DNA of 64,000 nucleotides from Gemmatimonadota bacterium (GCA_003222115.1 QHUL01000054.1:56925-120924); one strand, 5' to 3'. Positions 51,403 through 58,652 are shown, counted from the first letter of the stretch. Program-made: numbers and translations. The notes: generated from the letters alone by a model not told the origin.

Positions 51403-52455
51403 ATGCGCAATACGCTCTGTGGCGTGTTGCTCTGCGGCTGTGCGGCAAGTGCCGCGGCCCAGGGCACGCCGGTCACGTTCGAGGAGCCGCAACCCGTGGC
51501 CGTGACGGGGTTCGCGGTGGGCCGCGCCGACTACGATCGGCTCGCCCGCAGCAACAGCTTCACGGCCGGGAAGATCGGCGTGAGTCTGTTCAAGCCTGTG
51601 GGAGAGGCCTATTTGTTCGCGCAGCTGACGACCGCACTCGAAGACGGCCAGACCTCCACCGAGATCGACAACCTGCTCGTGAGCTGGACGCCGCAGCGGG
51701 CGAACCGATGGACAGTCGCATTCGGTCGGTTCGACGCGCCGATCGGCTTCGAGCGCGATGACGAGCCCTTGAACCTCATCGCCACGAATTCCTTCAACTT
51801 CGCGTACGCGCGCCCCGGCAAACTCACCGGCGTGCAGCTGCATTACACCGTGACGCCGCGGTTCGAGCTGTGGGGCGTCGCGGCCAACGGGTGGGACGTC
51901 GCGGCGGACAACAATCGGGGGAAGACGGCGCTCGCCCGCGCCCAGTGGATCCCCATTCCGTGGGTGACCCTGGGAGTCACGGGAGTGTATGGCCCCGAGC
52001 GCGACGCCACCGATGCGCATCAGCGTTCCCTGTTGTCGAGCGACCTCACCGTTGACCGCGGGCGCGTGATCGTCGGCGCCGAGCTCAACCTCGGCCGGGA
52101 GCAGGATCCCGCCGGGAACCCGACGTGGCGCGGTGGTGCGGTGACGGCGTTCCTGCGCCTCACGCGCAGCCTCGGGTTCACCGCCCGATACGATCAACTG
52201 GAAGACTCGGACGGCCTCCTCACCGGCACGCCCCAGATCCTGCGATCCGTCACCGTGGGCCCGATGTGGTACTTCTCGCGCGCGAGCGAGGGGATCTTCA
52301 GCAACATCGAGCACACCCGCTTCCACCTGCCGCAGATCGCACTGCGGGGCGCCGTCCGCGCGGATTGGTCGTCCCAGCCGTTCTTCACGGATGCGAGCGG
52401 CGGGCTGCAAGGGTCGAATACCCGAGGTATCCTCGAGCTCGTGTACATCTTCTAG
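51403..52455 (+). CDS. Putative outer-membrane beta-barrel porin
   Basis: Signal peptide; FGRFDAPIGFE, NGWD..DNNRGK, amphipathic strands, C-terminal ELVYIF. Confidence 0.8.
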   Translation: MRNTLCGVLLCGCAASAAAQGTPVTFEEPQPVAVTGFAVGRADYDRLARSNSFTAGKIGVSLFKPVGEAYLFAQLTTALEDGQTSTEIDNLLVSWTPQRANRWTVAFGRFDAPIGFERDDEPLNLIATNSFNFAYARPGKLTGVQLHYTVTPRFELWGVAANGWDVAADNNRGKTALARAQWIPIPWVTLGVTGVYGPERDATDAHQRSLLSSDLTVDRGRVIVGAELNLGREQDPAGNPTWRGGAVTAFLRLTRSLGFTARYDQLEDSDGLLTGTPQILRSVTVGPMWYFSRASEGIFSNIEHTRFHLPQIALRGAVRADWSSQPFFTDASGGLQGSNTRGILELVYIF

Positions 52456-52468
52456 GCGGAGGGATTCC

Positions 52469-53014
52469 ATGCTGTACGACTTGCGGCACGCGGACGCCCG
52501 GATCAAGTGGCTCGTGACCTGCCTGCTCGCCACGCTCGGCCTCTCCTACGTGTTCGGCGCGCTCATGGTCTCCCTCTACGCGGGATTCACACCGCGGGGT
52601 GTGGCGGCAACCTACCGCGGTCGGGAAATGTCGATGCCGATGCCACCCGAGACGACCATGGTCCTGGAGCATCCGATGGCCATGGCCGAGTTTGCCAAGC
52701 CGGAGACTCACACCGTCGACACCAATCTGCTCATCCAGGACACCCACGTGCACGTCCCGATGTACGGCATGATCGCCGCTGCCTTGTCGCTCGTAGTCGT
52801 CGGCCTATCCCTGGAGCGACGCCGGGCGTTCGGCCTCATCACCGTGCTCTTCGCCGCGCCGTGGCTCGACTTCGCCGGCATGTGGCTCACCAAGTTCGCC
52901 TCCGCGCGCTTCGCGATCATGACGCTCGTCGGCGGGTGGGCGATGGGCTTGGGCTATGTCGTCGTGGCGGCGCTGGCAGTCCAACAGATGTGGTTTTCAC
53001 GCGAGAGGAGTTGA
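52469..53014 (+). CDS. Membrane protein (about 4 TM) with Met/His-rich loop and THVH motif
   Basis: GGAGG RBS; REMSMPMPPETTMVLEHPMAMAEF loop; QDTHVHVPMYG. Confidence 0.75.
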   Translation: MLYDLRHADARIKWLVTCLLATLGLSYVFGALMVSLYAGFTPRGVAATYRGREMSMPMPPETTMVLEHPMAMAEFAKPETHTVDTNLLIQDTHVHVPMYGMIAAALSLVVVGLSLERRRAFGLITVLFAAPWLDFAGMWLTKFASARFAIMTLVGGWAMGLGYVVVAALAVQQMWFSRERS

Positions 53015-53017
53015 CCG

Positions 53018-53569
53018 ATGAACGTGCCGATGCGCCTGGCGACGATCGCCGCGGTCCTCCACATCACTCCCGCCGTCGTGCTGGTGAAGCGCCCGGACGC
53101 GGTTCAGGCCCTGCTGCCGGGGGCGGACGCCTACTTCGCGCGCGAGGTGCACCTGAGCACGCCGGACGCCCACCGCCTGCACAAAGCGGTGGAGTGGAGC
53201 CCCGAGGACGGCGTGCTGACGTTCTACGTGGGGAGGACCGGGTCGGCGGCCGTCGGCGCGCTCGAGTTCGTGCGCGTGGACACGCCCCACGGACCGATCG
53301 AGGTGGCCGTCGGTTTCACCCCGCAAGGCACGGTGCGCGGCGTGCTCGTCACCAAGGCCACGGTCGAAATGAAGCCGTGGGTGCTCGAAGCGGTGGGCGC
53401 CGGTCTCACAAACCACTATCGACAGCTCAAGCCCGGCGATACCCCAAACGGGGCCGCCGCCATCGCCGGGCAGGCCGGTGATCTCGCCGTGTACATCGCC
53501 GGAGAGGTGGACAAGGGCGTGGCCCGGGCGCTGGCCGCCTACGGGGCGTTCTACACAGGGAGCGCCTAG
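53018..53569 (+). CDS. Exported FMN-bind/RnfG-like fold protein lacking the canonical flavinylation motif
   Basis: GAGGAG RBS; AVQALLPGAD, HGPIEVAVGFTPQGTVRGVLV pattern; no (S/T)GAT. Confidence 0.6.
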   Translation: MNVPMRLATIAAVLHITPAVVLVKRPDAVQALLPGADAYFAREVHLSTPDAHRLHKAVEWSPEDGVLTFYVGRTGSAAVGALEFVRVDTPHGPIEVAVGFTPQGTVRGVLVTKATVEMKPWVLEAVGAGLTNHYRQLKPGDTPNGAAAIAGQAGDLAVYIAGEVDKGVARALAAYGAFYTGSA

Positions 53570-53630: not shown

Positions 53631-54014
53631 CTACAGCGCCGGATCGTACAGCTCGTCCCAGGCGACCGCGAAGTCGCCGCGGCAGCGGGGGCAGACCATC
53701 CGCTCGGGATGTCCCCCTAGCTGAGCGCGCTCGCTGCAGCTCGGGCACACGGCGTAGCGCGGGCCCCAGCTGGCGGGATAACGGACGGCATCGTGGGGGC
53801 GCGGAACGATCGTCCAGCGGCGTGGGGGCACCTCGACCACCTTCAGGAAGGCGCAGGGCACAGGCAGGGCCTTCCCTTTCACTTCCACCACAGCCTCGAG
53901 CGGGCCCAACTCCCGCACCCGGTACCACGCGCCGCGCCGCAGCTTGCAGTTGAGATCGGCCTGCAGACGAGCCCAGTGCTTCCCATTCCCATTCCCATTC
54001 CCATTCCCAGGCAT
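53631..54014 (-). CDS. Unassigned small zinc-ribbon protein, paralog 1 (WAR/LRRGAWY family)
   Basis: GAGGT RBS; WARL..LRRGAWYRV..W..YAVCPSC..CPRC..AW. Confidence 0.8.
   Translation of the reverse strand: MPGNGNGNGNGKHWARLQADLNCKLRRGAWYRVRELGPLEAVVEVKGKALPVPCAFLKVVEVPPRRWTIVPRPHDAVRYPASWGPRYAVCPSCSERAQLGGHPERMVCPRCRGDFAVAWDELYDPAL
53980..54009. repeat. (TTCCCA)5 microsatellite encoding GNGNGNGNG in paralog 1
   Basis: Five exact copies read directly. Confidence 0.9.
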
Positions 54015-54124
54015 GCACACACCTCGGCCCTACGACTGTCGAAGGCTGAAAAGAGGAGGAGCTGAGATCGGCGGGCGCGGCGATCCTGGCCTGGGACAAT
54101 GATATGCCGTCCGGCCCAGGAGGC

Positions 54125-54140
54125 CGTGTCGCAGATCACA
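54125..54140 (-). promoter_or_regulatory. CRP/FNR-like box upstream of paralog 1
   Basis: TGTGA-TCTGCG-ACACG on the minus strand, 20 nt before TATCAT (54099-54104). Confidence 0.6.
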
Positions 54141-54217
54141 ACGCCGACGAACTTCCTCCGCCCTCACGGTTATGTTTACGCGGCGGCACGGAAACGTCGC
54201 TCGCGTGGGAGGGTCGC

Positions 54218-54646
54218 ATGCGACTCGCATGGCATGTCATGACGGTCGGGGCGCTGATCGGCGCAGCCTGCTTCGATCCCACGGCCAGCAGTCAACGCGG
54301 CACGTTGACGCTGGGCGGGACGTCCGCCGACCAGCTCGCCTTCTCAGTGCAGCCGCAGAACGCGGTCGCCCGCCAGATCATCACCCCGGCGGTGCAGGTG
54401 ACGGCCCTAGATCCCCTCGGTAACACCGACGTGAGCTTCACGGGAGACGTGACGGTGAGCCTGGGCACGAATCCCGGGGGTGGCTTTCTCGGAGGGACCC
54501 TCACTGTCGGCGCCGTGAACGGTGTCGCGAGCTTCGGGGACCTGACGGTGAGCTCGGCGGGAACGGGCTACACATTGGTCGCCTCTGCCCCGGTGTCCGG
54601 AGCCAAGAGCGCCACGAGCAACGCCTTCGACATCACGAGCCCCTGA
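54218..54646 (+). CDS. Lipoprotein with an Ig-like (invasin/Big-like) domain
   Basis: GGAGG RBS; GAAC lipobox; QLAFSVQP, TPAVQV, NGVASFGDL, GTGYTLVA, SNAFDI. Confidence 0.75.
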   Translation: MRLAWHVMTVGALIGAACFDPTASSQRGTLTLGGTSADQLAFSVQPQNAVARQIITPAVQVTALDPLGNTDVSFTGDVTVSLGTNPGGGFLGGTLTVGAVNGVASFGDLTVSSAGTGYTLVASAPVSGAKSATSNAFDITSP

Positions 54647-54667
54647 ACCTCGGCCCCCCGCAGGGCC

Positions 54668-55027
54668 TCAGGCCGACGCGGGAGTCGGCTCGTTCCAGGC
54701 TATTTCGAACAGCCCGTTGCAGCGATGGCAGCGCATGCTCGTCGGGTGACCCTGGAGCGCCGCGCGGTCGCGGCAATTGGGGCACACGGCGTACTGCTGG
54801 CCCCAACCCGAGGGGAACCGCGGCGCGTTTTGCGGCGCGGCCACGACGGCCCAGCGGAGGCCGGGCGTCGGTGAGAGCTGCAGATGCCCGCGGGGAACGG
54901 GTAGCGGCTTCCCCTTCACGTCTACGATCGCCTCGCTCGCCGTGAGCTTGAGGATCCGGTACCAGGCGCCGCGGCGCAGGGGGTGGTTCTCATTCGCTTT
55001 CAGGCGGGCCCACTGGAAGGCTGGCAT
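54668..55027 (-). CDS. Unassigned small zinc-ribbon protein, paralog 2 (WAR/LRRGAWY family)
   Basis: GAGGT RBS; WARL..LRRGAWYRI..W..YAVCPNC..CHRC..AW. Confidence 0.8.
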   Translation of the reverse strand: MPAFQWARLKANENHPLRRGAWYRILKLTASEAIVDVKGKPLPVPRGHLQLSPTPGLRWAVVAAPQNAPRFPSGWGQQYAVCPNCRDRAALQGHPTSMRCHRCNGLFEIAWNEPTPASA

Positions 55028-55099
55028 CGCGGTACCTCGGGCGCTGGGATGTAGGGATACGGTGGCCAGGGGATGATACCGCGTCAACCCTGCACGGGC

Positions 55100-55115
55100 G
55101 GTGCCCGTGGTCACA
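55100..55115 (-). promoter_or_regulatory. CRP/FNR-like box upstream of paralog 2
   Basis: TGTGA-CCACGG-GCACC on the minus strand, 21 nt before TATCAT (55073-55078). Confidence 0.6.
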
Positions 55116-55125
55116 CGGCGGCCGG

Positions 55126-56316
55126 TTAGCGCTCCCTACCCGATTGCAGGATCGTCGCTGCGACCTCGGGATAGATGCCGATGGCGTGGCTGCGAAAGCT
55201 CAAAGACGACTGTCTCGTCGGCGTAGTGATCTGGATCGCGTTGGATCGCTGGTTGGGCATGTGGCAGTCGATGCAGGAAGTGATCATGCGCGCACCGATC
55301 TTGGCCGCCATCGGATGCTGGCTGGTTTGATGACATGCGAGGCACTTGCTCGCGAACGGAGCCAGGTCTCGTTGCGGTCGATGGACGTCGTGGCACGTGG
55401 AGCAGGACATCGTTGCGCTGGAGCGAAAGCACTTGCTGCGCCGCAAGAGTCCGACCTGATCTCCGTGCACGTCGGGGATCGGGGCATCCGATGCGGGGGA
55501 CAGGTAGTCATCCAGCTTTTCACCCGGCCGGTACGTGAACGGGGCCCTGATCTGCTCCCGCAGGCCCGAATGACACAAGGCGCAGTTATCCAACTTTCTC
55601 TCTCTGGAGAAGTGCGCCGGATTGATAATGTATTTTCCACGGGGCTCCGCCGGATGGGACGACTGGTACTGCACATGCTGGTGCCCGTCGCCGTGGCACT
55701 TTTCGCACGAAATGCCCAGCTCATAATCGCGAGAGTACTGCAGCGCGCGACGCTCCTGTTTGAGCTTGAATGAGGTGCTGTGACACTCCAGGCATCTCGG
55801 GACGATGACTCGTGCAAAGTCTATCTCACCATCCGTGTAGCCGGGACTGTTTATCCACTGATCGATTCCGGCCAGGTAGGACACGGGCAATTCGAACAAC
55901 AGGCCGTTCTTCCAGTAGAGATACGATTGCCCTCTTCTGCCGGACCCGACCACCAGATCAATCCGCTCCGTCCTCGAGGTCGACCGTGCCGAGTCCGCGC
56001 CGGTCTGATAGAACGCACCCCTGCGCCGCTCCATCTTGAAGTAGATCCCGGCCACCCCGGTGCGCAGCACGTTGTGCCCATCGGCAAAGCTTCCCTTGAC
56101 GGACTGGGCGCTTGCCTCGGCGGATGTCTTGAAGTGAGCGGTTTGAGCGAAGGCATTGAATAGCGCCTCGTGGCAGGCTTTGCACGGCATGGCGTGCGCC
56201 GCGAGGACCCACTGTCCGAACGCTCGCGTGACGGCGGCGGCCAGGAGACAGACCGCAGCACCGGCGCGTGTGATGGCGTGCTTGGGGTGCACTCGTCGTC
56301 GTTGCGCAGTGTTCAT
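55126..56316 (-). CDS. Multiheme cytochrome c (7 CxxCH; c554-like family)
   Basis: CKACH, CLECH, CEKCH, CALCH, CSTCH, CLACH, CIDCH; GSGRRGQSYLY; signal-like N-terminus; start uncertain. Confidence 0.85.
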   Translation of the reverse strand: MNTAQRRRVHPKHAITRAGAAVCLLAAAVTRAFGQWVLAAHAMPCKACHEALFNAFAQTAHFKTSAEASAQSVKGSFADGHNVLRTGVAGIYFKMERRRGAFYQTGADSARSTSRTERIDLVVGSGRRGQSYLYWKNGLLFELPVSYLAGIDQWINSPGYTDGEIDFARVIVPRCLECHSTSFKLKQERRALQYSRDYELGISCEKCHGDGHQHVQYQSSHPAEPRGKYIINPAHFSRERKLDNCALCHSGLREQIRAPFTYRPGEKLDDYLSPASDAPIPDVHGDQVGLLRRSKCFRSSATMSCSTCHDVHRPQRDLAPFASKCLACHQTSQHPMAAKIGARMITSCIDCHMPNQRSNAIQITTPTRQSSLSFRSHAIGIYPEVAATILQSGRER

Positions 56317-56398
56317 GCCCGAGGTGAGAGTCGAACTCACACGGGGTTGCCCCCGGGGGATTTTGAGTCCCCTGCGTCTGCCATTCCGCCACTCGGGC
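56316..56398 (-). tRNA. tRNA-Leu(CAA)
   Basis: GCCCGAG/CTCGGGC acceptor stem, GGCGGAATGGCAGACGC D-arm, GGGGA-CTCAAAA-TCCCC anticodon arm, long variable arm, GTTCGACT T-loop; CCA not encoded. Confidence 0.95.
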
Positions 56399-56459
56399 GA
56401 GCGGTGCGGGAGACTAATCTTAGCCGCCGCGCCGATGCCCCGCACATGAGCACGGGCGG

Positions 56460-56475
56460 GGTGTCGCGCATCACA
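56460..56475 (+). promoter_or_regulatory. CRP/FNR-like box upstream of paralog 3
   Basis: GGTGT-CGCGCA-TCACA (reverse complement TGTGATGCGCGACACC, near-identical to the paralog 1 box); TATACT at 56503-56508. Confidence 0.55.
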
Positions 56476-56573
56476 GCCCTGGTGCGGAGCGGGCCGAGAT
56501 CATATACTGGTCGTGCTGCAACGCAGGGCCGCGCCCTTCACCGAAGCCACCTCGAGCACCGCGGAGGGCGCGC

Positions 56574-57035
56574 ATGCATCAGTTACAGCAGTGGGCCCGG
56601 GTCAGGGCCCGCACGACCTGCCCTCTGCGCCGCGGCGCCTGGTACCGCGTCGTCTCCCTCACAGCGGTCGAAGCCGTCCTCGAGGTCCATGGCCGGCCGC
56701 TCTCCGTCCCCCGTCCCCTGCTGCAAGTGCTCCCGATTCGGCCTCGCATGTGGTCCGTGGTGTCGCGCCTGCGCGGCGCGGTGACTCCCCCGGCGAGCTG
56801 GGGTGCGAGATACGGCGTATGCCCGCGGTGCGCCGCCCGGGCTCCCTTGCACGAGCGGCAGGCCACCCTGCGCTGCCCCAACTGCAGCTTCGCCTTCCTG
56901 ATTGCCTGGTCGGACTCGCATTGGCGCGTGTTCGAGCTGCTGTCCGGCAGCCCGGCCGCTCGCGCGGTGGTCAAGGCCCGCGACGCCGCCCGAAGACTGT
57001 GGCGTCGCTCTGCGCCGGAACGGTCTGAGGCTTGA
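56574..57035 (+). CDS. Unassigned small zinc-ribbon protein, paralog 3 (WAR/LRRGAWY family, C-terminal extension)
   Basis: GGAGG RBS; WARV..LRRGAWYRV..W..YGVCPRC..CPNC..AW. Confidence 0.8.
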   Translation: MHQLQQWARVRARTTCPLRRGAWYRVVSLTAVEAVLEVHGRPLSVPRPLLQVLPIRPRMWSVVSRLRGAVTPPASWGARYGVCPRCAARAPLHERQATLRCPNCSFAFLIAWSDSHWRVFELLSGSPAARAVVKARDAARRLWRRSAPERSEA

Positions 57036-57086: not shown

Positions 57087-57632
57087 CTACGGCCTACGCC
57101 GGGGGGGCTTGGCTTCGCGGGGGCGCCGCGGCGCGCGCCGTGGACCCATCATCTCGCTGCGGCGCCGCCGCTGCTCGCGAATCTCCTGAATGCGCCGTCG
57201 CAGCTGCTCTCGCATCATCTGGTAGCGCGCCTGCTGCACCGGCGTGAGGTAGCCCGAGACTTCGCGGTTCTCGTTGCGTTCGATCTCCGCCAGGGCGGTC
57301 CGGTTGCGGTCCCGCGCGTCCATGAGCCTCCGCACGCTGTCCGAGTTCGCGGCGACGCCGGGCTGGAGCTGTCCCCGCAGCGCCTCGTTGACGGTCCGCT
57401 GCCGCTGCGCGAGTTCCACGCGCTGCTGCGTGAACTTCTGCTCCGTCCCCTGCAGCTTCGCGGCCTGGTCGTCCGACAGGTTGAGATCCTGGCGCACGCG
57501 CGCGTTCCACCGCTCTCTGATCTGCTGCCGCAGCTGCTCTGCTTCAGCGTCGCCGCTCGTGTCGGCCGGGGTCTGCGCCGCGAGCGCGGGCGACACCAGC
57601 GCGAGCAGCATCACGAACAGAAATCGCTTCAT
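57087..57632 (-). CDS. Spy/CpxP-like periplasmic helical protein
   Basis: Signal peptide; LNLSDDQ and LTPVQQARY (LTxxQ-like motifs). Confidence 0.75.
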   Translation of the reverse strand: MKRFLFVMLLALVSPALAAQTPADTSGDAEAEQLRQQIRERWNARVRQDLNLSDDQAAKLQGTEQKFTQQRVELAQRQRTVNEALRGQLQPGVAANSDSVRRLMDARDRNRTALAEIERNENREVSGYLTPVQQARYQMMREQLRRRIQEIREQRRRRSEMMGPRRAPRRPREAKPPRRRP

Positions 57633-57636
57633 GGTA

Positions 57637-58071
57637 TCAGCTCTCCAGTGTGCGCAGCAGCGCGCGCAATTCGGCGGTGTTCAGGCTCTCGAGCCCCGGG
57701 TCGAGACCGCCGGGGCTCTCCTCGGCGAATGGCTGCTCGAGCGCGCCAACGGTCTCGCGCAGCTGATCGGCTGTGAGGTCGCTAAGGTCCTCCCCGAGCG
57801 GCGCGCCCACGGCCGCCGTGGGAACGCGTTCCCGCAGCAGACCCCGCGTCACGAGGCCCGCCCCCAGCACCAGCACGATCGCCGCCGCGATCTTGAGCCA
57901 TGCGGGCTGCATCCACACCCAGCCCCCCAGCATCACGCGTGGCTGCTGGCGCAGCCGCGTGACCACCGCCTGCGCCGTGCGCTCGACGTCCAGCCGCTCC
58001 GCCGCCCCGGCCCCAAGCAGTCGGGCGAGCTCGCGCAACCTGCCGTCTTGCAGCTCTTCGTCCATGTTCAC
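57637..58071 (-). CDS. Putative single-TM anti-sigma factor
   Basis: WLKIAAAIVLVLG TM segment; directly downstream of the ECF sigma. Confidence 0.65.
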   Translation of the reverse strand: MNMDEELQDGRLRELARLLGAGAAERLDVERTAQAVVTRLRQQPRVMLGGWVWMQPAWLKIAAAIVLVLGAGLVTRGLLRERVPTAAVGAPLGEDLSDLTADQLRETVGALEQPFAEESPGGLDPGLESLNTAELRALLRTLES

Positions 58072-58613
58072 TCTAGGGACTCCTTCAGGCGTCTGACGGC
58101 GTGGTGATAGTGCACACGGGCCGCGCCGGGCGACGTGCCCAGCGCGGCGGCGATCTCCTCGTACTCCAGGCCCTGCTGCGCGCGGAGCAGGAACACCTCC
58201 CGCTGCATGTGCGGCAGCCGCTCCAGCCCTTCCCGCAACCGCCCCTCCGTCTCACCGGCCACCGCCGTCTCGTGCGGGTCGCCGTCGCGTGAGCGTAGCT
58301 CGTCGTCGAGCGGCACGACCCGCACCTGTCCGAACCGCCGCGCCGCGTCCTTCAGCACGTTGCCCCCGATCGTCAGCAGCCAGGTGCGGAACTGGCACTG
58401 GCCGCGGAACCTCCCGACCGCACGGAACGCCCGAATGAACGTCTCCTGCACCAGGTCGTCGAGGTCCGCGTCGGGGGCACCCGCGGCCCCGAGGAAGCGG
58501 GCCAGCGCCCGCGCGTGCCGCCGCACCAGCTCGGCCGCCGCCTGCTCGTCCCCGCCCTGCCAGGCGGCGATCAGCGCCGCGTCGGCCGCGGCGAGGGACT
58601 GGGCGTGGGGCAT
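58068..58613 (-). CDS. ECF RNA polymerase sigma factor
   Basis: DDLVQETF, FRTWL, LPHMQREVFLL, YEEIAAALG. Confidence 0.92.
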   Translation of the reverse strand: MPHAQSLAAADAALIAAWQGGDEQAAAELVRRHARALARFLGAAGAPDADLDDLVQETFIRAFRAVGRFRGQCQFRTWLLTIGGNVLKDAARRFGQVRVVPLDDELRSRDGDPHETAVAGETEGRLREGLERLPHMQREVFLLRAQQGLEYEEIAAALGTSPGAARVHYHHAVRRLKESLE

Positions 58614-58652
58614 GCGTCGGTACGGTGGACGTTTGGGCGGCGTCAATATTAA

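Follow-up and report, generated by a model that had tools for sequence, protein, structure and literature searches.

Three paralogous genes, here termed A, B and C, lie between positions 53,631 and 57,035 of a 64,000-nucleotide stretch of DNA (hereafter, the window) from an uncultured soil Gemmatimonadota bacterium (GCA_003222115.1 QHUL01000054.1:56925-120924). They define a family of small proteins, named FAM in this report, that is undescribed and absent from the descriptions in the libraries and papers searched. In sigma-70-type promoter recognition, region 2 reads the -10 element and the helical region 4 reads the -35 element. Comparison of FAM proteins across related genomes tentatively points to their acting in transcription initiation together with sigma proteins that consist of region 2 only, a reading that we regard as a serious possibility, if still short of probable. 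The narrower proposition, that FAM specifically does the job of region 4, is doubtful.

In the proposed mechanism, FAM would be a transcription-initiation module that partners truncated sigma factors of the extracytoplasmic function (ECF) type. The truncated proteins would contain region 2 only, bind RNA polymerase and read the -10 element, and FAM would stand in place of region 4, normally the -35 reader and beta-flap holder; as a region-4 substitute, it would contact upstream promoter DNA, the beta flap, or both. The two halves would be joined in one polypeptide in some organisms and encoded by translationally coupled or adjacent genes in others. In the window's genome they would be unlinked: eight FAM genes, A, B and C included, stand against two region-2-only genes located on contigs other than the window's. 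We infer the joint action, the binding to DNA or RNA polymerase and the substitution for region 4 from sequence comparison.

An original prediction, drawn from the sequence alone, had placed three open reading frames (ORFs) with one collinear pattern at these positions, and all three ORFs and the pattern were reproduced (Table 1). The genes are intact paralogs, with pairwise identities of 53% (A/B) and 47% (A/C), and their alignment presents 43 invariant columns, including WAR, LRRGAWYR, W67, WG, Y-x-V-C-P-x-C, R-A-x-L, C-x-x-C, F and A-W. This similarity is not due to chance, because the three-sequence profile finds 1881 proteins and five further intact copies in the genome. The predicted set of three paralogs is hence real, but it is an undercount, with eight copies in the window's genome and up to 20 in relatives. 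A GAGG or GGAGG precedes each ATG by 7-10 nt, as had been claimed for the ribosome-binding sites, and none of the N-termini read from the translations is hydrophobic, which agrees with the claimed lack of signal peptides.

Searches of Pfam-A, NCBIfam, PADLOC and PHROG with A, B and C returned no family reaching its cut-off, in keeping with the earlier statement that no family could be recognised. The best Pfam match was IBR_1 (21.1 bits against a cut-off of 27), the best NCBIfam match had E >= 0.003, far under the cut-offs, PADLOC gave 0 matches and the best PHROG match had E 0.019. Among 70 family members, matches at E<=1e-3 were solely to generic zinc-ribbon models and involved at most nine of the 70. 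A protein atlas search returned unnamed Gemmatimonadota clusters only, and a full-text literature search, with subscription-only papers outside its reach, yielded no description of FAM or of a zinc-ribbon/SH3 module replacing sigma region 4.

The A/B/C profile detected its 1881 matches at E<=1e-3 among 3996 candidates. All of them are unnamed or annotated as 'hypothetical', and their named sources are Gemmatimonadales or Gemmatimonadota metagenome-assembled genomes (MAGs). A second profile, A2, comprised 70 sequences (A, B, C and 67 of 120 listed matches, hand-thinned) and matched 515 of 1.84 billion cluster representatives (50% identity clustering) at E<=1e-3, 345 at <=1e-10 and 48 at <=1e-30. 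In collections with one genome per species, 436 of the 444 stretches containing LR[RK]GAWYR[IV] encode relatives; counts for related loci given below refer to the best 80 loci of that set, 79 of which are labelled Gemmatimonad-, mostly soil MAGs. The remaining one, a 7.3-kb contig labelled as an Actinobacteria MAG (L102, VAWH01000081.1), carries an A-type member in a Gemmatimonadales gene order and is probably mis-binned.

A survey of the phylum detected FAM matches in 69 of 301 genomes, belonging to two families of one order: 65 of 125 genomes in the window's own family (f1), the window's genome itself and 3 of 3 in a second family. No match was found in the 172 genomes of ten other families of the phylum. 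With a more sensitive single-protein query, matches were obtained in 136 of 201 f1 genomes and 61 of 78 genera. The family hence appears to be restricted to the Gemmatimonadales. Copy number per genome ranges from 1 to 20: the window's genome has eight intact copies (A-H), the fully scored genomes have 14, 15, 17, 19 and 20, and some whole genera present exactly one (e.g. g7, 10/10 genomes). These counts take in four genomes flagged as unpublished (G182, G308, G369 and G412). The number of adjacent copies in otherwise syntenic loci varies from 1 to 3, which argues for tandem birth and loss of FAM genes. Mobile-element genes were not seen around FAM copies, and a defence or phage origin was discarded on this ground together with the null PADLOC result and the lack of any PHROG match below E 0.019.

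Copies A, B and C each define a separate ortholog clade in the family tree, with orthologs in other genera. Nei-Gojobori (NG86) comparison of each paralog with its 12 most similar relatives gave dN/dS values of 0.10-0.29 for B (71-76% amino-acid identity), 0.20-0.33 for C against five orthologs (67-76% identity), rising to as much as 0.61 against more distant paralogs, and 0.25-0.35 for A against the nine closest relatives listed (0.25-0.49 over all 12). These values are upper bounds, since dS lies at 0.7-1.7, near saturation. The suggestion of old duplications under selection is upheld by these orthologs and by the dN/dS of 0.10-0.35 among the closer ones.

Modest evidence was also obtained that B and C are transcribed. 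Two soil metatranscriptome runs of one study yielded contigs 100% identical to the B region (54406-54959 and 54544-54914), and one contig, in one run, spans 56666-56816 in C. No metatranscriptome contig covers A, whose GGGAAT repeat stretch was skipped in the mapping; most of the 3.8-kb stretch is uncovered, and depth is 2-3 even where covered, so that the gap over A says nothing about its transcription. DNA runs that may have contributed to this assembly are flagged in the same study, and an RNA library can contain some DNA.

With a length of about 115 aa, FAM proteins are predicted to fold as an SH3-like beta-barrel followed by a Cys4 zinc ribbon. The AlphaFold2 model of B, based on alignment A2, is confident and all-beta (mean predicted local distance difference test, pLDDT, 83.2; predicted template modelling score 0.71). 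Residues 1-57 of the model superpose on SH3 domains, with 6uzj as the best match (Z 6.7, root-mean-square deviation 2.2 A over 54 residues), and the 50 structural-neighbour rows are all SH3 or SH3-like domains with Z < 8; the shared fold is a prediction and implies no homology. Foldseek comparison of the whole model with the PDB gave weak KOW, Tudor, Hfq, integrase C-terminal and SH3 matches, none at E<=1e-3, and neither the C-terminal half against the PDB nor the search against BFVD viral models returned anything at that threshold. Modelled alone, the C-terminal half reached pLDDT 81.7 (62 sequences taken as DNA references), and VIA-align found a weak resemblance to small zinc ribbons of the IBR, LysW, ZitP, Rpa12 and HP0958/CT398 types (best Z 3.0). 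Among solved structures, the tRNA-binding zinc ribbon of TiaS gave the best sequence-profile match (E 0.0055).

Residues C82, C85, C100 and C103 (B numbering) are invariant in all 70 sequences and in all 62 C-terminal halves, and short strands surround both CxxC knuckles in the model. For CxxC...CxxC knuckles, zinc and iron cannot be told apart from sequence alone. Five Trp and several Arg residues are invariant or nearly so in the 70 sequences, and the free-standing cores are basic, with a median pI of 10.2 and a median net charge of +10 over 91 cores. The description of these proteins as basic and Trp-rich, with a beta-barrel N-domain and a C4 zinc ribbon, is therefore matched by core composition, by the AlphaFold2 models and by a structural match list filled with SH3 folds. 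No Pfam match to Sigma70_r2 or Sigma70_r4 was detected in A, B or C.

The connection with sigma factors arises from proteins in which FAM is joined to another domain. A scan of 38 over-long proteins, picked by length from the family searches, and of four matches of a search for longer forms yielded three fusion proteins only (P0168, P0178 and P0162); the length of the others seems due to wrongly called starts or to tails of low complexity. A metagenome scan for the DNA context of the fusions (alignment A4) gave one weak, incomplete match. P0168 (214 aa, a cluster of four distinct sequences) and P0178 (234 aa, five full-length sequences) come from several sources, and are 33% identical and collinear across both domains. 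Their ~95 N-terminal residues correspond to ECF sigma region 2, with a Sigma70_r2 score of 22.1 bits against a cut-off of 24. A joint profile of the two matches region 2 of Mycobacterium tuberculosis SigK (4nqw_A residues 20-107, E 4e-8) and other ECF sigma factors; some 20 NCBIfam ECF models also match it, in each case over the first ~90 positions of the model only. Region 2 is followed by a short linker, FAM and the protein end; there is no region 4, whose place FAM takes.

The third fusion, P0162 (250 aa), is a singleton from an 8.4-kb contig in which a receiver domain (PF00072, residues 5-115, E 7e-21) precedes FAM (129-241), placing FAM in the position of a response-regulator output domain. 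Read by eye, the receiver has its acidic pocket and phospho-acceptor Asp, together with the Thr and Lys that are conserved in such domains. The initial guess of a regulator or an RNA polymerase- or ribosome-associated factor gains indirect support, as regards regulator and polymerase, from the fusion to and coupling with ECF region 2 and from the receiver fusion, but nothing was found to point towards the ribosome.

Region 2 and FAM also occur as neighbouring genes. In genome G139, the TGA of a gene encoding a 133-aa region-2-only protein overlaps the ATG of a gene for a 117-aa FAM as ATGA (GCATGACC), with GGGAG ahead. In G185, a region-2 ORF and FAM lie in one frame with one stop between them, the sole full-length fusion match in 401 phylum genomes; the locus may represent a fusion gene in decay, or the stop may stem from a sequencing error. 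The G185 FAM (L134, G185:C72) ends in ...FAVA, three residues early, and lacks the invariant final Trp. Region-2-only ORFs are located upstream, on the same strand, of A-type FAM genes at gaps of ~350 nt in G376, L097 and L098 and of 716 nt in L103, and of B-type genes at gaps of 366 nt in L054 and 87 nt in L065. In G035 the region-2-only ORF lies 124 nt downstream of FAM, and in two sister genomes 2.2 kb downstream. In the family tree, linked FAMs are distributed over at least six clades, those of A, B and D among them, with P0168 and G139 in that of D. Proximity of FAM to any sigma gene was also considered as support and was set aside: in five genomes, 13 of 79 FAM copies have a Sigma70_r2 match no more than 5 kb away, where ~6 would be expected, a weak excess among loci that are not independent.

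Free-standing region-2-only proteins are encoded in the window's genome (Table 1) and in related genomes. In an alignment of 17 such proteins of 91-118 aa (A5, one row from unpublished genome G182), all end within ~35 residues past region 2.4 and most within 20. Short region-2-only ORFs, defined as open frames <=170 aa with E<=1e-10 to the C87 protein, were identified in 24 of 201 genomes of the taxonomic family: in 24 of the 48 with at least four FAM matches and in none of the other 153. These 24 genomes span 12 genera, and two of them (G182 and G308) are unpublished.

The region-2-only genes share a conserved two-part motif, GT[TG]AC-N16-19-TCTT[TCA][AC], which occurs within ~115 nt upstream of 15 of 18 such genes, one of the 15 being from G182. 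With the stricter ending TCTT[TA]A, four sites were found in the window's whole genome against one in a reversed-sequence control, and two of the four precede the genome's two region-2-only genes. Since the motif was derived from the upstream regions of region-2-only genes, its match there is partly circular, a concern that does not extend to its rarity genome-wide. The motif also precedes 8 of 89 FAM genes in related loci. The two other strict sites, at C11:333-362 (-) and C50:97578-97607 (-), one of them ahead of a small secreted-looking protein, are candidate regulon members.

A partnership of FAM with region-2-only sigma proteins in initiation would be the simplest account of the fusions, the couplings, the co-occurrence and the promoter. 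The -35-like half of this promoter implies the need for a -35 reader, which a region-2-only protein lacks. Because FAM takes the place of region 4 in the fusions and this promoter half would be unreadable by region 2 alone, a role as region-4 substitute is favoured within that partnership. For A, B and C, the link to sigma factors rests on family membership, on clade-level linkage elsewhere and on the two region-2-only genes in the genome, not on local context. A complex prediction combining a region-2-only protein of the window's genome (A5, 17 rows) and B (A2, 70 rows) scored 0.00 twice and speaks neither for nor against the partnership; the pair may not be cognate, and the partners may meet only on RNA polymerase.

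Several observations weigh against this partnership. The fused form is rare, with no uninterrupted full-length fusion in 201 genomes of the taxonomic family or in 401 of the phylum, and the receiver-domain fusion is one sequence from one contig. A region-2 ORF lies near five of 142 FAM ORFs in the 80 related loci, leaving most copies unlinked, and neither the window nor its genome has a FAM gene adjoining a region-2-only gene. The co-occurrence counts overstate the support, since related genomes are not independent. FAM genes far outnumber region-2-only genes (8 versus 2 in the window's genome and up to 20 versus 3-4 in relatives), and genomes with a single FAM have full-length ECF relatives only and no region-2-only gene, which implies that ancestral copies act otherwise or alone; such copies include the single one of genus g7 and one that lies just after a class II ribonucleotide reductase gene. 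The motif upstream of A, B and C differs from that of the region-2-only genes, and a full-length ECF sigma could be the reader of the conserved two-part promoter. Lastly, the FAM domain of P0178 is acidic (pI 5.5), and charge is hence not a family-wide argument; an analogy with the charge of region 4 was rejected for this reason and because the window's own ECF region 4 is not basic.

The ATGA overlap seen in G139 is the usual layout of sigma/anti-sigma pairs, and FAM might instead be a soluble zinc-holding anti-sigma factor or co-factor, binding and controlling region 2 and not replacing region 4. FAM lies directly downstream of the sigma gene in both G139 and G185, which is not the case for A, B and C, and a site that senses redox state or metal could be built from its four invariant cysteines. 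The sigma partner, however, has no region 4, and FAM sits at the exact place of region 4 in the fusions. In addition, FAM is all-beta in the model, in contrast to the helical class I anti-sigma domain, and presents CPxC and CxxC sites with no conserved His in place of H-x3-C-x2-C. FAM copies far exceed their putative sigma partners and most are distant from any sigma gene (the 13 of 79 within 5 kb noted above, against ~6 expected), and the receiver-domain fusion better fits an output domain. Fused C-terminal regulatory extensions are nevertheless common on ECF sigma factors, with 19 groups carrying them in the ECF classification (Casas-Pastor et al. 2021, PMC7826278). On balance, we consider an anti-sigma role unlikely.

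FAM proteins could alternatively be regulators that bind DNA or RNA on their own, for example small transcription factors or proteins associated with the nucleoid or with RNA. The few sigma and receiver fusions would then be incidental, reusing a generic nucleic-acid-binding domain, and A, B and C would be unconnected with region-2-only proteins. Their basic character and conserved Arg and Trp residues, the SH3-like, KOW, Tudor, Hfq and integrase C-terminal folds at the top of the weak structural matches, and the tRNA-binding ribbon of TiaS as best profile match (E 0.0055) are all compatible with such a role. So are the single-copy genomes that lack a region-2-only gene, the conserved upstream elements that A, B and C each possess, and the dispersed members and tandem birth and death (1-3 copies per syntenic locus), as in transcription-factor families. 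This account leaves unexplained the restriction of region-2-only genes to genomes with an expanded family (24/48 versus 0/153), the recurrent fusion, splitting and coupling in at least six clades and the presence of the region-2-only promoter motif ahead of 8 of 89 FAM genes, and its chances seem to us as slim as those of an anti-sigma role. Far less probable is that FAM has no transcription role and is a small redox or metal protein or an adaptor for other proteins, the barrel docking a peptide or partner and the Cys4 site holding iron (rubredoxin-like) or sensing metal: the 50 top structural neighbours are peptide-binding SH3 and SH3-like folds, including NdhS of photosynthetic complex I (6hum_S, Z 5.3), the Cys4 metal is not assignable from sequence alone, and cytochrome and membrane-protein genes lie beside the window copies, but all structural Z scores are below 8, neighbours vary between paralogs and genomes, the cytochrome gene looks inserted, and a sigma and a receiver domain are the sole partners recurring in fusions.

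Among known systems, the proposed partnership of FAM with region-2-only proteins most closely resembles SigO-RsoA of Bacillus subtilis, whose sigma2 and sigma4 domains are described in the ECF classification (Casas-Pastor et al. 2021, PMC7826278) as residing on two different polypeptides. The likeness lies in a sigma function distributed over two small side-by-side polypeptides, one of them with region 2. The second subunit of SigO-RsoA keeps a helical region 4, whereas FAM is a predicted all-beta SH3-like barrel and zinc ribbon unrelated to region 4; FAM also has 8-20 paralogs, mostly unlinked to a region-2 gene. A free region-2-only polypeptide, one hallmark of such a split sigma factor, is present in the window's genome, and an adjacent or fused partner is found in other genomes only. 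A region-4-only partner in the manner of SigO-RsoA was discarded, since none of the 25 PF08281 (Sigma70_r4_2) matches in the window's genome is a short region-4-only ORF at Pfam sensitivity.

The closest functional analogy is found in phage T4, where the late sigma-like protein gp55 contains region 2 only and the co-activator gp33 sits on the beta flap in the place of region 4. The shared design is a region-2-only sigma with a small, flap-bound second protein. The T4 pair differs in being a phage system with the sliding clamp as activator, and is not known to be related to FAM in sequence or fold.

Both the N-terminal halves of the fusions and the free region-2-only proteins are clear relatives of region 2 in canonical ECF sigma factors (ECF41, ECF42, ECF238 and others), and a conserved two-part motif whose spacing is ECF-like lies ahead of the region-2-only genes. 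Classified ECFs all have sigma2 and sigma4, and their known extensions follow region 4, whereas FAM takes its place in the fusions. The published ECF library kept only proteins with both sigma2 and sigma4 Pfam domains, a filter that would exclude region-2-only proteins and fusions and so account for their being missing from the classification (PMC7826278).

Other small cysteine-containing proteins resemble FAM less closely. Zinc-binding anti-sigma factors such as RsrA have a helical domain with H-x3-C-x2-C; they are likewise small and cytoplasmic, hold zinc via cysteines (predicted for FAM) and are encoded just downstream of a sigma gene, but FAM is all-beta in the model and carries CPxC...CxxC. 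The WhiB-like proteins of Actinobacteria, helical 4Fe-4S proteins of ~100 aa that act on sigma factors and RNA polymerase, offer an analogy as a lineage-restricted family with four invariant cysteines, conserved Trp and Arg residues and many paralogs per genome; no homology between the two was found, and no Pfam match. Generic zinc ribbons (SprT, IBR, TiaS, PriA, LysW and TFS/RpoM) give sub-threshold matches to the ~40 C-terminal residues of FAM, the SprT zinc-ribbon and IBR_1 models each matching 9 of 70 members at E<=1e-3, below curated cut-offs, and none covers the N-terminal barrel or WAR...LRRGAWYR.

If FAM does replace region 4, an unrelated beta-barrel/zinc-ribbon module in that role would widen the known designs of sigma factors, all the more so for a module that is mostly encoded apart and reaches up to 20 copies in a genome of 3-4 Mb. 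Such a role would further account for two protein sets missed by existing classifications and supply compact new parts for orthogonal gene control. A more speculative extension, which we judge quite improbable, is a modular sigma factor in soil Gemmatimonadales in which 1-4 region-2-only subunits, sharing a CTCTTTA-like -10 element, would combine with 8-20 interchangeable SH3/zinc-ribbon subunits, including A, B and C, each with its own -35-like specificity or input signal, so that promoter choice would be combinatorial and set by the small subunit expressed. Were this true, it would be the first case of a non-helical module in the place of region 4 and of a sigma factor whose specificity subunits can be exchanged. 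Should the sigma reading fail, FAM is still a large unannotated family, with 515 representative clusters (50% identity) and 436 loci in genomes chosen as species representatives, that is under selection, apparently transcribed and among the most expanded small-protein families of abundant, poorly studied soil bacteria.

Table 1. Location of the FAM genes, their upstream elements, neighbouring features and region-2-only genes. Coordinates without a contig prefix are those of the window; C-prefixed contigs belong to the window's genome. HMM, hidden Markov model; GC3, G+C fraction at third codon positions.
Feature	Coordinates	Strand	Description
Paralog A	53631..54014	-	127 aa; SH3-like barrel and C4 zinc ribbon (predicted); family HMM E 1e-54; own ortholog clade
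Paralog B	54668..55027	-	119 aa, the modal family length; protein used for modelling; family HMM E 7e-59
Paralog C	56574..57035	+	153 aa; same core and basic tail of ~35 aa; family HMM E 3e-49
Upstream element of A	54126..54141	-	TTGTGA-N7-CAC; begins 37 nt before TATCAT at 54099-54104; candidate promoter
Upstream element of B	55101..55116	-	GTGTGA-N7-CAC; begins 38 nt before TATCAT at 55073-55078; candidate promoter
Upstream element of C	56461..56476	+	GTGTCGCGCATCACAG; begins 37 nt before GATCAT at 56498-56503; candidate promoter
Predicted lipoprotein	54104..54646	+	Between A and B; 180 aa; no Pfam match; Met at 54218 is the probable true start
Multihaem c-type cytochrome gene	55126..56316	-	Between tRNA-Leu and B; Pfam cytochrome families
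tRNA-Leu(CAA)	56316..56398	-	Between B and C; ARAGORN; conserved landmark of the locus
FAM copy D	C11:73562-73912		Window's genome
FAM copy E	C69:6709-7068		Window's genome
FAM copy F	C91:56096-56479		Window's genome; divergent copy
FAM copy G	C91:57183-57545		Window's genome
FAM copy H	C41:59025-59342		Window's genome
Region-2-only gene	C87:26760-27068		Window's genome; 102 aa; GC3 0.87; E 1e-27 to region-2 profile; convergent gene directly after
Region-2-only gene	C82:189480-189836		Window's genome; E 6e-15

The upstream regions of A, B and C, in a window of ~70% G+C, share a layout in which (G/T)TGTGA-N7-CAC or GTGTC...CACAG starts 37-38 nt before a TATCAT or GATCAT hexamer, suggesting that they function as promoters. 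We take this element to resemble a CRP/FNR-type site centred near -41. Among relatives, TGTGA was found at the matching place in four of seven A-type upstream regions and in 11 of 29 B-type regions, where it lies at -80 to -92 and three further regions have GCGTGA variants, and GTGTC at -111 to -117 in four of six C-type regions. Several GTGTGA...CAC elements are also present upstream of one region-2-only gene of the window's genome (C87:26599-26759), where GTGTGAGCCTCCGCAC nearly matches GTGTGAGCCGGGCCAC, found ahead of B-type FAM genes in other genomes; this near-identity hints at a shared regulator. Divergent from the same gene, C87:25522-26595 (-) encodes a 357-aa protein whose N-terminal part looks receiver-like by eye.

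The basic C-terminal tail of C is kept in its orthologs (152-153 aa). The N-terminus of A is MPGNGNGNGNGK, a (Gly-Asn)5 repeat encoded by tandem GGGAAT units (53973-54016) whose length slippage could change; the close relatives P0004 and P0005 are 129 and 127 aa long. Alternative starts exist for A (GTG at 54020) and, in a longer form, for B (55114); GAGG, however, precedes the B ATG at 55027. One DNA contig of run X6 links 53672 to 54960, omitting 1287 bases that comprise most of A, the lipoprotein gene and most of B, with only 21 letters on its shorter side, and may represent a strain variant or a between-paralog assembly artefact.

The three copies had been described as parted by unrelated genes and clustered around a tRNA-Leu, and the lipoprotein and cytochrome genes and the tRNA-Leu(CAA) are indeed found among them (Table 1). 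The same tRNA is present in all ten syntenic loci checked in other genomes, the B-type gene follows it directly in the syntenic loci of relatives, and the order C - tRNA-Leu - B is old. The cytochrome gene has a G+C fraction of 0.61 and a GC3 of 0.76, against a GC3 of 0.80-0.93 in neighbouring genes, and no clustered counterpart in related loci; on both grounds it is probably an insertion beside the tRNA, outside the system. The predicted lipoprotein is treated here as a neighbour of the A/B/C genes; its relatives (~185 aa) are multi-copy beside the family, with 63 genes in 41 of the 80 related loci, nearly all in one syntenic locus.

In all syntenic loci, C is convergent with an operon encoding an ECF sigma, an anti-sigma and a periplasmic protein (57087-58646 in the window). 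The 80 related loci fall into three syntenic classes, and the neighbours of the five other copies in the window's genome (D-H) are unrelated to one another. Conserved neighbours were rejected as a functional clue, the recurrent porin, isocitrate dehydrogenase, aminopeptidase, SecDF, RidA, MurI and lipoprotein genes reflecting synteny. Two adjacent genes at 52391-53569, encoding a 207-aa membrane-like protein and a 183-aa protein, lie downstream of a BBP2 porin gene and have no Pfam match; the former is kept in 22 related loci. Elsewhere in the genome (C91:53500-57545), copy F immediately follows a gene resembling class II ribonucleotide reductase (828 aa). A gene order kept in three genera (seen also at loci L036 and L040) runs from a large protein through a Ser/Thr kinase that bears an N-terminal zinc ribbon to the reductase and FAM, with pyruvate kinase further on, and this reductase-FAM arrangement may be the ancestral context of the family.

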